UHGV virus genome: UHGV-1789446
DNA length: 11,100 nt
Source: a virus
Strand: one strand, 5' to 3'
A program made the position numbers and the translations under genes. The notes beneath the pieces were generated by a model, which saw only the letters and a program-made list of their open reading frames with translations, was not told the DNA's origin and did no database searches. Of the stretch, positions 4,838 to 11,007 are shown in pieces. Position 1 is the stretch's first letter. Each line of letters begins with the position of its first letter.

Positions 4838-5581
4838 ATGACGAGTCCCGCACAGCGCCACATGATGCGGGTCTCGGCAGCGATGACCGCGCAGCGGGAA
4901 GCCGCCCCGCTGCGACATGCAACTGTCTATGAGCAGATGCTGGTCAAGCTGGCCGCAGACCAGCGCACACTGAAAGCGATTTATTCAAAAGAGCTGAAGG
5001 CCGCGAAAAAACGCGAACTGCTGCCGTTCTGGTTGCCGTGGGTGAACGGCGTGCTGGAGCAGGGCAAAGGTGCACAGGATGACATTCTGATGACGGTCAT
5101 GCTGTGGCGTCTGGATACCGGCGATATTGCCGGCGCGCTGGAGATTGCCCGTTATGCCCTGAAGTACGGTCTGACCATGCCGGGTAAACACCGCCGCACC
5201 CCGCCGTACATGTTCACCGAGGAGGTCGCACTCGCGGCCATGCGCGCTCACGCTGCCGGTGAGTCTGTGGATCCCCGCCTGCTGACGGACACCCTCGAAC
5301 TGACCGCCACGGCTGACATGCCTGATGAAGTGCGCGCAAAGCTGCACAAAATCACCGGTCTGTTTCTGCGTGACGGTGGTGATGCCGCAGGGGCGCTGGC
5401 GCACCTGCAACGTGCGACACAGCTCGACTGTCAGGCAGGCGTCAAAAAAGAGATTGAACGACTGGAGCGGGAGCTGAAACCGAAGCCGGAGCCGCAGCCA
5501 AAAGCGGCCACCCGCACTCCGCGTAAGACCCGGAGCGTGACACCGGCAAAACGTGGACGCCCGAAAAAGAAAGCCAGTTAA
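4838..5581 (+). CDS. M: Terminase small (endonuclease) subunit gpM
   Basis: Track ORF 4838..5581 (247 aa), GGGAG SD 8 nt upstream, start 3 nt after the N stop. Ends in a basic, Pro-rich tail (KPKPEPQPKAATRTPRKTRSVTPAKRGRPKKKAS). Confidence 0.9.
   Translation: MTSPAQRHMMRVSAAMTAQREAAPLRHATVYEQMLVKLAADQRTLKAIYSKELKAAKKRELLPFWLPWVNGVLEQGKGAQDDILMTVMLWRLDTGDIAGALEIARYALKYGLTMPGKHRRTPPYMFTEEVALAAMRAHAAGESVDPRLLTDTLELTATADMPDEVRAKLHKITGLFLRDGGDAAGALAHLQRATQLDCQAGVKKEIERLERELKPKPEPQPKAATRTPRKTRSVTPAKRGRPKKKAS
5549..5572 (+). other. AT-hook-like motif (KRGRPKKK) within the basic C-terminal tail of gpM
   Basis: Codons AAA CGT GGA CGC CCG AAA AAG AAA at 5549..5572 encode K-R-G-R-P-K-K-K; R-G-R-P flanked by Lys/Arg is the core of the AT-hook minor-groove binding motif. 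This sub-feature lies inside the M CDS. Confidence 0.4.
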
Positions 5582-7615: not shown

Positions 7616-8028
7616 TGATTGTGCTGGTTGTGTTGTTATCACTGGCGGTGGCCGGTCTGTTTCTGGTGAAACACAAAAATGCCAGCCTGCGCGCCTCGCT
7701 GGACAGGGCGAACAGCGTCGCCAGTGAACAGCAGACGACCATCACCATGCTGAAAAATCAGCTTCATGTTGCCATCACCAGGGCAGACAAAAACGAGCTG
7801 GCGCAGGTGGCACTGCGTCAGGAACTGGAGAACGCCGCGAAGCGTGAAGCACTGCGCGAGAAAACCATCACGAGGTTACTTAATGAGAACGAAGATTTTC
7901 GCCGCTGGTACGGTGCTGACCTGCCTGATGCTGTGCGCCGGTTGCACCAGCGTCCGGCCTGCACCGACGCCAGTGATTGTCGCCAACGCCTGCCCGAAAG
8001 TGAGCCTTTGCCCGATGCCGGGCAGTGA
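7603..8028 (+). CDS. lysB: Inner-membrane spanin component LysB (Rz-like)
   Basis: Track ORF 7603..8028 (141 aa), GAGGGG SD 8 nt upstream, overlapping the lysA 3' end by 13 nt. It has an N-terminal transmembrane segment (LMIVLVVLLSLAVAGLFLV) followed by a charged, helix-prone region (...ELAQVALRQELENAAKREALREK...). Confidence 0.85.
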   Translation: MSKLMIVLVVLLSLAVAGLFLVKHKNASLRASLDRANSVASEQQTTITMLKNQLHVAITRADKNELAQVALRQELENAAKREALREKTITRLLNENEDFRRWYGADLPDAVRRLHQRPACTDASDCRQRLPESEPLPDAGQ

Positions 8029-8173
8029 CCCGGAGACGAACGGCGATTTAAGTGCTGATATCCGGCAGCTTGAGAACGCGCTGGCACGCTGTGCCAGCCA
8101 GGTAAAAATGATTAAACACTGTCAGGACGAAAACGATGCTCAAACCCGACAGCCTGCGCAGGGCGCTGACTGA
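7883..8173 (+). CDS. lysC: Outer-membrane lipoprotein spanin component LysC (Rz1-like), starting inside lysB in the +1 frame
   Basis: Track ORF 7766..8173, trimmed to the ATG at 7883 with GAGG 7-8 nt upstream, giving 96 aa. The N-terminus looks like a lipoprotein signal with Cys residues (MRTKIFAAGTVLTCLMLCAGC...) and the mature part is Pro-rich. It starts within lysB and extends past the lysB stop into the 5' end of R. Confidence 0.8.
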   Translation: MRTKIFAAGTVLTCLMLCAGCTSVRPAPTPVIVANACPKVSLCPMPGSDPETNGDLSADIRQLENALARCASQVKMIKHCQDENDAQTRQPAQGAD

Positions 8174-8603
8174 TGCCGTCACGGTGCTGAAAACCAGCCC
8201 CGAGATGCTGCGGATATTCGTGGATAACGGGAGTATTGCCTCCACGCTGGCGACGTCGTTGTCATTCGAAAAGCGTTACACGCTCAATGTGATTGTGACC
8301 GACTTTACCGGTGATTTTGACCTGCTCATTGTGCCGGTGCTGGCGTGGCTGCGGGAAAATCAGCCCGACATCATGACCACCGACGAAGGCCAGAAAAAGG
8401 GCTTCACGTTTTATGCAGACATCAACAATGACAGCAGCTTTGATATCAGCATCAGCCTGATGCTGACCGAGCGCACGCTGGTCAGTGAGGTGGACGGCGC
8501 ACTGCATGTTAAGAATATCCCGGAACCCACGCCGCCGGAGCCGGTCACCCGCCCGGTGGAGCTTTATATCAATGGCGAACTGGTGAGCAAGTGGGATGAA
8601 TGA
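8136..8603 (+). CDS. R: Tail completion protein gpR
   Basis: Track ORF 8136..8603 (155 aa), AGGA SD 8 nt upstream. Its first 38 nt overlap the lysC 3' end in another frame. Confidence 0.88.
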   Translation: MLKPDSLRRALTDAVTVLKTSPEMLRIFVDNGSIASTLATSLSFEKRYTLNVIVTDFTGDFDLLIVPVLAWLRENQPDIMTTDEGQKKGFTFYADINNDSSFDISISLMLTERTLVSEVDGALHVKNIPEPTPPEPVTRPVELYINGELVSKWDE

Positions 8604-9048
8604 GTTTAAGCGTTTTGAAGACCGGCTGACCGGACTGATTGAATCGCTGTCACCGTCAGGGCGTCGGCGACTGAGCGCCGAACTGGCGAAACGTCTGCGG
8701 CAGAGTCAGCAGCGTCGGGTGATGGCTCAGAAAGCCCCGGACGGCACACCCTACGCGCCACGCCAGCAGCAGAGCGCCAGAAAAAAGACTGGTCGTGTTA
8801 AGCGAAAAATGTTTGCGAAACTTATCACCAGTCGTTTTTTGCATATCCGCGCCAGCCCGGAACAGGCATCAATGGAGTTTTACGGCGGGAAGTCACCGAA
8901 AATCGCCAGCGTGCATCAGTTCGGTCTGTCGGAAGAAACCCGGAAAGACGGTAAGAAAATTGATTATCCGGCGCGTCCTCTGCTCGGCTTTACCAGTGAG
9001 GATGTGCAGATGATTGAAGAGATTATCCTGGCTCCCCTCGACCGTTAG
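8596..9048 (+). CDS. S: Tail completion protein gpS
   Basis: Track ORF 8596..9048 (150 aa). The start overlaps the R 3' end by 8 nt (ATGAATGA). Confidence 0.88.
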   Translation: MNEFKRFEDRLTGLIESLSPSGRRRLSAELAKRLRQSQQRRVMAQKAPDGTPYAPRQQQSARKKTGRVKRKMFAKLITSRFLHIRASPEQASMEFYGGKSPKIASVHQFGLSEETRKDGKKIDYPARPLLGFTSEDVQMIEEIILAPLDR

Positions 9049-9080
9049 TTGTGCCATCCCTGACCCCTCATCGTCACATT

Positions 9081-9102
9081 GCCGCCGGTATGACCCGGCG
9101 GC
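9081..9102. other. Perfect 8-bp GC-rich inverted repeat (stem-loop) in the S-V spacer
   Basis: Read directly: GCCGCCGG (9081..9088), loop TATGAC (9089..9094), CCGGCGGC (9095..9102). It lies 33 nt after the S stop and 12 nt before the V ATG, with no U-tract after it. In P2 this spacer is where the V-operon late promoter is expected (established knowledge). Confidence 0.55.
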
Positions 9103-9114
9103 ATCCTTCCCGTT

Positions 9115-9750
9115 ATGAACACTCTCGCAAATATTCAGGAACTCGCGCGCGCACTGCGCAACATGATTCGCACCGGCCTTGTCGTCGAAACCGACCTTAA
9201 CGCCGGTCGCTGCCGTGTGCAGACCGGCGGCATGTGCACCGACTGGCTTCAGTGGCTGACCTGTCGTGCCGGGCGTTCGCGCACATGGTGGGCACCTTCC
9301 GTGGGGGAGCAGGTGCTGATTCTGGCCGTGGGCGGTGAACTCGACACGGCGTTCGTTCTGCCGGGGATTTATTCCGGCGATAACCCCGCGCCGTCTGCGT
9401 CGGCGGATGCCCTGCATATCCGTTTCCCTGACGGGGCGGTGATTGAGTATGAACCCGAAACCAGTGCACTCACGGTAAGCGGAATTAAAACGGCCAGCGT
9501 GACGGCTTCTGATTCTGTTACTGCCACGGTGCCGGTGGTCATGGTGAAAGCATCAACCCGCGTCACCCTGGACACACCGGAGGTGGTCTGCACCAACAGG
9601 CTGATTACCGGCACGCTGGAAGTGCAGAAGGGCGGGACGATGCGCGGCAACATTGAACACACCGGCGGTGAACTCTCATCAAACGGTAAGGTACTGCATA
9701 CCCATAAACACCCCGGCGACAGTGGCGGCACAACCGGGAGTCCTCTATGA
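9115..9750 (+). CDS. V: Baseplate central spike protein gpV
   Basis: Track ORF 9115..9750 (211 aa). The C-terminus carries a His-rich HTHKH segment (9697..9711) followed by PGDSGGTTG. No purine-rich SD is visible in the 12 nt before the ATG (ATCCTTCCCGTT). Confidence 0.9.
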   Translation: MNTLANIQELARALRNMIRTGLVVETDLNAGRCRVQTGGMCTDWLQWLTCRAGRSRTWWAPSVGEQVLILAVGGELDTAFVLPGIYSGDNPAPSASADALHIRFPDGAVIEYEPETSALTVSGIKTASVTASDSVTATVPVVMVKASTRVTLDTPEVVCTNRLITGTLEVQKGGTMRGNIEHTGGELSSNGKVLHTHKHPGDSGGTTGSPL

Positions 9751-10098: not shown

Positions 10099-11007
10099 AT
10101 GCCGATTATCGACCTGAACCAGCTACCCGCACCGGATGTGGTCGAGGAGCTGGACTTTGAAACCATTCTTGCCGAACGCAAGGCGACACTGATTTCCCTT
10201 TACCCGGAAGACCAGCAGGAGGCGGTCGCCCGTACCCTGACGCTGGAATCTGAGCCTCTCGTCAAACTGCTGGAGGAAAATGCTTATCGTGAGCTTATCT
10301 GGCGTCAGCGTGTGAATGAGGCCGCACGGGCGGTGATGCTGGCCTGTGCCGCCGGTAATGACCTTGATGTGATTGGTGCCAATTACAACACCACGCGCCT
10401 GACTATCACCCCGGCAGATGATTCGACCATGCCGCCGACACCGGCAGTGATGGAATCTGACACCGATTATCGTCTGCGTATTCAGCAGGCGTTTGAGGGC
10501 TTAAGCGTCGCCGGGTCGGTGGGAGCCTATCAGTATCATGGTCGCAGTGCCGACGGGCGTGTCGCGGATATCTCTGTCACCAGTCCGTCTCCGGCCTGCG
10601 TCACCATCTCTGTGCTGTCACGTGAAAATAACGGTGTCGCATCCGAAGACCTGCTGGCCGTGGTGCGTAACGCCCTTAATGGCGAGGACGTCAGGCCGGT
10701 GGCCGACCGCGTGACCGTGCAGTCTGCCACCATTGTTGAATACCAGATAAACGCCACGCTTTACCTTTACCCTGGTCCCGAAAGCGAACCCATCCGCGCT
10801 GCTGCCGTGAAAAAACTGGAAGCGTACATCACGGCACAGCACCGGCTTGGGCGCGACATCCGTCTGTCTGCCATTTATGCCGCTTTGCATGTGGAAGGCG
10901 TGCAGCGTGTCGAACTGGCTGCACCGCTGGCCGACATCGTGCTCAACAATACGCAGGCGTCTTTCTGTACCGAATACAGCGTCGTGACCGGAGGCTCGGA
11001 TGAGTGA
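10099..11007 (+). CDS. J: Baseplate assembly protein gpJ (T4 gp6-like)
   Basis: Track ORF 10099..11007 (302 aa), beginning 4 nt after the W stop. Confidence 0.9.
   Translation: MPIIDLNQLPAPDVVEELDFETILAERKATLISLYPEDQQEAVARTLTLESEPLVKLLEENAYRELIWRQRVNEAARAVMLACAAGNDLDVIGANYNTTRLTITPADDSTMPPTPAVMESDTDYRLRIQQAFEGLSVAGSVGAYQYHGRSADGRVADISVTSPSPACVTISVLSRENNGVASEDLLAVVRNALNGEDVRPVADRVTVQSATIVEYQINATLYLYPGPESEPIRAAAVKKLEAYITAQHRLGRDIRLSAIYAALHVEGVQRVELAAPLADIVLNNTQASFCTEYSVVTGGSDE

Follow-up and report, generated by a model that had tools for sequence, protein, structure and literature searches.

In the GenBank record of bacteriophage P2 (AF063097), transcription of the V operon is annotated to start at 10308, where the V coding sequence itself begins, with the activator site of the promoter pV at -69 to -42. 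This start site rests on the GenBank annotation together with a secondary citation, a passage of Shell et al. (2015, PMC4633059) that cites Christie & Calendar (1985) and counts P2 among the few sources of leaderless genes in the E. coli system. The consensus activator dyad is a partial dyad of the TGT-N12-ACA type, with its centre ~55 bp upstream of the start site (PMC3931495). Here, the corresponding junction is analysed in the virus genome UHGV-1789446 (11,100 nucleotides; "the window" refers to this whole stretch of DNA). In the window, the stop codon of gene S (TAG, 9046-9048) and the start codon of gene V (ATG, 9115) are separated by a spacer of 66 nt, and this spacer contains a GC-rich hairpin.

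Two described junctions are useful for comparison. In P2, the interval between S and V differs from that of the window in its whole sequence and is ordered as terminator, opposite-strand non-essential orf30, activator site and V. The P2 "putative rho-independent terminator for O operon" (AF063097, 9397-9433) resembles the window hairpin in being strong, in starting ~30 nt past the S stop and in standing at the end of the same operon. It is unlike the window hairpin in that its sequence is unrelated, its stem base is A/U-rich, and it lies between the convergent S and orf30, outside the promoter. The t45/pJ junction of phage 186 (U32222) shares with the window a pair of co-oriented late operons and a terminator packed against the next activator-dependent promoter. 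There, however, t45 is located 10 nt upstream of the B-binding site and outside the promoter, and J has a 24-nt leader, which provides the room for a separate terminator.

Comparison with P2 and with related loci indicates that the whole 66-nt spacer of the window is a complete, compact late promoter pV of the P2 type, predicted to be Ogr/delta/B-dependent. When the four P2 late promoters are aligned on their annotated start sites and the window is aligned on A9115, the putative activator site of the window is in register with those that AF063097 annotates for pV, pO/pP and pF. Its left half, GTTGTG (9048-9053, with TGT at 9050-9052), begins at -67, as compared to -67 in P2 pV, -66 in pO and -68 in pF. 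The right half is degenerate, with CCC at 9065-9067. This gives a TGT-N12-CCC centred near -56 from A9115; P2 pO and pF have TGT-N12-CCA, and P2 pV differs from the window in having CAA/ACA in the right half. A reading made from the window sequence alone (the sequence-only reading) had reported no Ogr-type dyad nearby. This is correct for a perfect TGT-N12-ACA, but the TGT-N12-CCC in the P2 late-promoter register was missed because its right half is degenerate. The nearest candidate in that reading, TGT at 9003-9005 with AGA at 9018-9020, is rejected as an activator site: it belongs to the coding part of S and is conserved as well in P2, whose pV sits 900 nt further on. Across the window, a search for perfect TGT-N12-ACA returned a sole match, at 7658-7675 inside lysB; the match is identical on both strands, coincides with no known promoter and is probably a chance occurrence.

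The similarity to P2 pV extends to the downstream half of the promoter. Both promoters precede the same gene and the same V-W-J-... operon, with GTTGT at -67 and a hexamer CA(A/T)(T/C)CT at -13 to -8. To place this arrangement among relatives, 238 loci with V homologues (68-100% amino acid identity) from bacterial genomes and viral contigs were reduced to 162 distinct upstream sequences, and 122 distinct promoter cores were aligned gaplessly on the -10 element. TTGT is found at -66/-65 in 159 of the 162 distinct promoters. The -10-like hexamer is CATCCT in 64 of the cores, CATTCT in 27 and CATCAT in 10, and it ends 6 or 7 nt before the V ATG in 120 of 122. Nearly purine-free sequence follows it, with at most one purine at -6 to -1 in 133 of the 162 promoters. 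TTG is located exactly 17 bp upstream of the hexamer in 98 of the 122 cores. P2 late promoters are usually described as having no -35 element, and P2 pV has no TTG in the -35-like column. A consensus promoter and terminator scan made no call in the S-V spacer; such a scan is uninformative for activator-dependent promoters.

The promoter geometry bears directly on the start of V. The 12 nt before the V ATG (9103-9114) read ATCCTTCCCGTT, and the sequence-only reading had described them as pyrimidine-rich and devoid of a Shine-Dalgarno (SD) sequence. An anti-SD duplex search is in agreement: no SD was found in the 20 nt upstream of the ATG, and the best anti-SD duplex there is the hairpin stem itself. 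The alignment reinterprets this tract as the -10 element and discriminator of a promoter. That almost every other gene in the window has a clear SD is roughly right, as it holds for N, M, Y, K, lysA, lysB, R, W and O; the SD is weak before S, J and X. Among relatives, an SD-like motif precedes V in only 14 of the 162 distinct sequences, and all V loci whose start fell within the fetched DNA use ATG as the start codon. V of P2 also has no SD, and its ATG is at the annotated start point.

From this arrangement we infer that the V mRNA of the window is leaderless, with its start at A9115, or that it has a leader of at most 3 nt with G9112 as the alternative initiating purine. The near absence of purines before the ATG leaves its A as the natural and preferred initiating purine, and a leaderless mRNA would explain the missing SD. 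The sequence features expected of a leaderless mRNA are found here: no SD, an AUG start and a -10 element ~7 nt upstream of the AUG. The classic leaderless mRNA is that of lambda cI, which begins with AUG when transcribed from PRM. PRM differs from pV of the window in its promoter class and regulator, and it has no nested hairpin. An SD-proximal start for V elsewhere, which the sequence-only reading had considered, is not borne out, as an in-frame TGA in the hairpin loop (9091-9093) excludes any earlier start. The ATG in the loop (9090) was rejected as a gene start, being out of frame with V and in a loop that is not conserved.

The hairpin is real and is conserved in many relatives. Its 5' arm lies on the -35-like TTGCCG and its 3' end on the -10-like hexamer, which places the structure at -35 to -12, inside the promoter and outside the predicted V mRNA. 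The 8-bp GC stem GCCGCCGG (9081-9088) / CCGGCGGC (9095-9102) and the loop TATGAC are as previously described from the sequence, and the stem is perfect; pairing of T9080 with A9103 extends it to 9 bp. The 9-bp stem is worth -19.5 kcal/mol and begins 31 nt past the S stop. The predicted fold of RNA covering 9049-9135 has an energy of -23.1 kcal/mol (z = -3.07), which none of 200 shuffles equals. The window contains four distinct perfect hairpins of at least 8 bp, as compared to ~1.4 expected from dinucleotide shuffles, and the expectation for stems of at least 9 bp is 0.38 per window; the S-V hairpin is the only intergenic one of the four. An Rfam scan of 8700-9500 on both strands (E up to 10) gave only chance-level matches (E at least 2.9, far below gathering scores), none of them on the hairpin. 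Although the fold is also stable on the minus strand, a reading on that strand was rejected: it has no gene or T-tract there, and the G.U-type changes described below favour the plus strand.

As in a canonical intrinsic terminator, the hairpin combines a stable GC-rich 9-bp stem with a 6-nt loop and stands past the last gene of an operon. It differs in the missing U-tract. The tail after the stem is AUCCUUCCCGUU / TCCTTCCCGTTATGA, with a T-tail score of 1.53 as compared to 4.23 and 4.33 for the P2 terminators tQ and tV. The sequence-only reading had denied that this is a classical intrinsic terminator; that judgement stands, and the classical form is rejected on the missing U-tract.

On balance, the hairpin is probably a 3'-end or terminator structure of the O operon, nested in pV. 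One line of evidence for a link to the upstream operon is its genomic context. Promoters were grouped into 64 clusters at 80% identity or more, a strong fold was defined as -12 kcal/mol or below, and a co-oriented open reading frame (ORF) was counted if it had at least 100 codons. A strong fold is present in 17 of the 21 clusters with a co-oriented ORF ending just upstream, as compared to 9 of the 29 with an opposite-strand neighbour (Fisher p = 6e-4). After control for composition by shuffling, the median z is -2.39 for the co-oriented group and -0.17 for the opposite-strand group (Mann-Whitney p = 7.5e-4). In the first locus set, the hairpin is present in all 21 loci with S directly upstream. 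It is absent from the experimentally studied pV of P2 and from ~20 other clusters, and these promoters indicate that it is not needed for promoter function.

Only polymerases arriving from the upstream O operon, which ends in R-S, would transcribe the hairpin. One possibility is that it acts as a weak intrinsic terminator of that operon. In the more probable variant, a stable stem-loop with no U-tract would be the end point of trimming after Rho-dependent termination in the downstream V region. That region is C-rich and, with an SD-less V start, would be left untranslated on read-through transcripts. Either variant would also limit read-through over pV. Because V appears to be leaderless and the promoter fills the whole spacer, there would be no room for a separate terminator.

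There is precedent for the second variant. In transcripts terminated by Rho, stable stem-loops with no U-tract have been described as marking the 3' ends and protecting them, and the Rho utilization (rut) site lies just downstream (Dar & Sorek 2018, PMC6061677). The window resembles these cases in having a stable stem-loop of this kind past the last gene and C-rich, G-poor sequence directly downstream. It is unlike them in that the stem-loop overlaps core elements of the next promoter, and here the Rho dependence is proposed by analogy. The RNA flanking the hairpin (9054-9143, plus strand) is C-rich and G-poor and thus rut-like, in composition only. The C/G ratio is 3.25 over 9049-9079 and 2.4 over 9104-9143, and 78-nt windows around the hairpin give 1.5-2.07, as compared to a median of 0.95 and a 95th percentile of 1.47 across the whole window. 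The proposal in the sequence-only reading that the structure ends the upstream operon is the one that the evidence favours, in a putative form that need not involve an RNase site.

Where only one arm of the core stem has changed, the change is mostly from C to U, so that a G.U pair is retained on the plus-strand RNA (53 cells, as compared to ~10 A.C cells). Compensatory changes of the inner stem are found in locus L043 (GCCGCTA/TAGCGGC), in locus L030 (GCCGCTCAG/CTGGGCGGC) and in the L080 group, and series from C-G to U-G to U-A are seen in L100/L122 and L234/L222. The lineage-specific compensations in L043 and L030 and in the two series suggest that folding is under selection. In a further group, made up of 14 distinct sequences, the stem is in a shifted register, register 2 (TGCCGTTC/GAACGGCA). 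Hairpins that are not homologous to that of the window occur in other lineages. The 186-type hairpin, GGAGCCGCGCG..CGCGGCTCC, spans approximately -48 to -23, and locus L064 exchanges its GGAG/CTCC for GCAG/CTGC. The Kosakonia type has a canonical terminator, CGGACAG..CTGTCCG followed by T5, which overlaps a perfect TGT-N12-ACA, so that relatives of this type hold a true terminator in the slot equivalent to that of the window hairpin. In the loci concerned (L012-L014 and L021-L026, Kosakonia and relatives; -65 to -33 from the V ATG), the ACA half of the dyad is the 5' arm of the terminator, and activator site and terminator have bases in common.

Several observations weigh against an operon-end function for the window hairpin. 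With so few U residues, its tail does not suit a classical intrinsic terminator. In the window allele, the activator dyad has a degenerate right half (CCC), which bears on promoter strength. The hairpin is kept in the 9 of 29 clusters with an opposite-strand upstream neighbour, and the context association is a count of clusters with no phylogenetic correction; AT-rich inserted accessory genes ("morons") may have brought along AT-rich promoter alleles. Covariation was assessed in 76 distinct promoters of the window type, using a gapless, structure-independent alignment in a fixed register, and it is weak. Paired cells amount to 85.2%, as compared to 83.6% in shuffles, which are nearly as paired because the columns are conserved; slid-partner controls are 27-59% paired. 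Double-change cells number 8 as compared to 4.1 expected, and 26 of 500 shuffles reach the observed value. The sequence-only reading had looked to conservation and covariation of the stem across relatives; the conservation holds in many of them, and the formal covariation is weak. Finally, the 3' arm CCGGCGGCA (9095-9103; columns 24-32 of alignment A1) is almost invariant over the 76 promoters, while the 5' arm drifts. This asymmetry is not explained by pure RNA pairing and suggests a DNA-level promoter constraint on -20 to -12, next to the -10 element.

The arm asymmetry leads to the alternative that deserves the most weight, although it seems unlikely: that the inverted repeat acts as promoter DNA and RNA folding is incidental. 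It could then be a GC-rich spacer between the -35 and -10 elements, an upstream -10 context that tunes the strength or activator dependence of pV, or a protein-bound dyad. The repeat lies exactly between the -35-like and -10-like hexamers, its invariant arm abuts the -10 element, the covariation is weak, and the hairpin persists in clusters with no co-oriented upstream gene, all of which are consistent with this proposal. However, P2 pV and at least 20 other clusters have no hairpin and yet keep GTTGT, the -10 element and the spacing; in P2, the -35/-10 spacer is AT-rich. Unrelated hairpins at -48 to -23 or at -52 to -36 in other lineages fit poorly with a fixed DNA contact, and the predominance of C-to-U changes that preserve G.U pairs, together with the inner-stem compensatory variants (L043, L030, L122/L222 and the L080 group), point to the RNA. 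The protein-binding dyad in the late promoter that the sequence-only reading had listed is thus correct as to location between the two promoter elements, and binding by a protein is unsupported, given the non-homologous hairpins elsewhere and the hairpin-less pV of P2.

A different function on the same read-through RNA is quite unlikely. Here, the hairpin on O-operon transcripts would control internal translation of V, either by making the pyrimidine tract available as a site for S1 or for standby binding, or by bringing ribosomes that terminate on S near the SD-less AUG. On such transcripts, 11 nt of pyrimidine-rich tract separate the stem from the AUG, and the association of the hairpin with a co-oriented upstream gene would be expected under this proposal as well. 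Against it, a leaderless V mRNA is indicated by the 6-7 nt gap between -10 element and ATG, by the invariable ATG start and by the start site annotated for P2. The distance from stem to AUG is not conserved, being 22-35 nt for the hairpins of types B and C, and no SD-like sequence is found upstream of the stem that folding could bring closer.

It is less likely still that the repeat has no function and is a conserved by-product of the common descent of a promoter allele. In its favour, the stem is mostly conserved rather than covarying, and the data are dominated by close relatives. Yet the z of the fold is about -3, in distant lineages this ~60-nt slot is repeatedly occupied by non-homologous hairpins, and the correlation of folds with context survives the control for composition. 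The least probable proposal, carried over from the sequence-only reading, is a hairpin in the V 5' untranslated region that stabilizes the mRNA or controls V translation: it draws on the significantly stable fold just upstream of an SD-less start, and it is disfavoured because the start site annotated for P2 coincides with the A of the V ATG, the activator-site and -10 registers are conserved relative to the ATG in ~160 promoters (which would place the start at or within 1-3 nt of the ATG, downstream of the stem, an outcome that the sequence-only reading had itself counted towards refutation), no -10-like element lies upstream of the stem at the right distance from GTTGT, Rfam gives no match, and the hairpin is absent from P2 and many relatives with an identical V start.

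The operon-end reading can be extended, tentatively and at the price of becoming rather unlikely, to a single insulating module composed of the SD-less leaderless start and the U-tract-less hairpin, in which only RNA initiated at pV would translate V. On read-through transcripts, the 5' region of V would be untranslated; Rho would load on the C-rich stretch and terminate transcription, and exonucleases would trim the RNA back to the hairpin.

Table 1. Coordinates of genes, predicted promoter elements and the hairpin at the S-V junction of the window.
Feature	Position	Strand	Remarks
Gene S (tail completion), last gene of the O late operon	8596..9048	+	From the ORF list; homology to the S genes of P2, Wphi and L-413C
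Predicted Ogr-type activator-binding site of the V late promoter	9046..9073	+	-69 to -42; overlaps the S stop; placed by register and homology
-35-like hexamer TTGCCG	9079..9084	+	At -36; separated from the -10-like hexamer by a 17-bp spacer; shares bases with the 5' arm of the hairpin
GC-rich hairpin	9080..9103	+	5' arm 9080-9088, loop TATGAC 9089-9094, 3' arm 9095-9103; spans -35 to -12 of the V promoter
-10-like hexamer CATCCT	9102..9107	+	-13 to -8; shares its first two bases with the 3' end of the hairpin; P2 counterpart in register: CAATCT
Pyrimidine-rich discriminator TCCCGTT, part of the SD-less tract	9108..9114	+	Between the -10 element and the start point
Gene V (baseplate spike)	9115..9750	+	A9115 is the predicted transcription start and the first base of the start codon

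The window represents the late region of a P2-like phage or prophage (Peduovirus), with the gene order P, O, N, M, L, X, Y, K, lysA, lysB, R, S, V, W, J. Its S-V part is 96-99% identical to Wphi, L-413C, fiAA91-ss and many others, and the spacer makes up 0.6% of the window. The compact junction with no orf30 is the common allele: of 5,426 complete E. coli genomes, 1,024 contain at least 80% of a 191-nt probe that spans it. The interval between S and V is a recognized site of horizontally acquired genes in P2-like phages (PMC3091744), and R18C has a different 741-bp ORF at this junction (PMC6823313). With P2 orf30, the R18C ORF and dozens of relatives that carry unrelated, mostly AT-rich inserts, the S-V junction (9048/9049 in the window) is an insertion hot spot. 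In the relatives inspected (among loci L006-L243), the inserts follow the S stop and precede the GTTGT of the V promoter.

Other features of the window were noted in passing. An antisense ORF of 174 codons (8893-9417, minus strand) spans the S-V junction and overlaps two conserved genes; it is most likely spurious. The same hairpin scan identified a perfect 9-bp GC-rich hairpin in gene M, the small terminase subunit (CGCAGCGGG-AAGCCGC-CCCGCTGCG, 4890-4914), and a perfect 21-nt palindrome in gene R (TCAGCATCAG-C-CTGATGCTGA, 8446-8466). A perfect 8-bp hairpin inside lysB/lysC (GCTGGCAC-GCT-GTGCCAGC, 8080-8098) also has no U-tract. By a constant coordinate offset of 319 nt it corresponds to 8399-8417 of P2, which is annotated as "putative transcription attenuator; O operon". 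The ORF list places the start of gene O at 2782, which would fall upstream of the pO start site; the same 319-nt offset to P2 gives the real start as 2848, preceded by CAGGA.

These results have several implications for P2-like phages. The SD-less start of V requires no new biology, as a leaderless V mRNA was described for P2 in 1985, and automatic annotation has no reason to seek another V start or ribosome-binding site. The leaderless architecture is kept with near base-pair precision in P2-like prophages of many Enterobacterales. What is new is that a probable operon-end hairpin lies nested within the next promoter, between its -35 and -10 elements; this varies on known kinds of element and is a modest refinement, not a new mechanism. 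Within 66 nt, the junction would hold a stop codon, an activator site, an operon-end hairpin, a -10 element and a start codon, a natural example of how two co-oriented operons may be separated, and relatives with genes inserted between S and V offer ready natural variants of this nesting of terminator and promoter. If the insulating module is true, the same 24 bp would double as the -35/-10 spacer of the next promoter, and the ratio of head to tail expression would depend on Rho and could be modulated by Psu, the Rho antagonist of the satellite phage P4.

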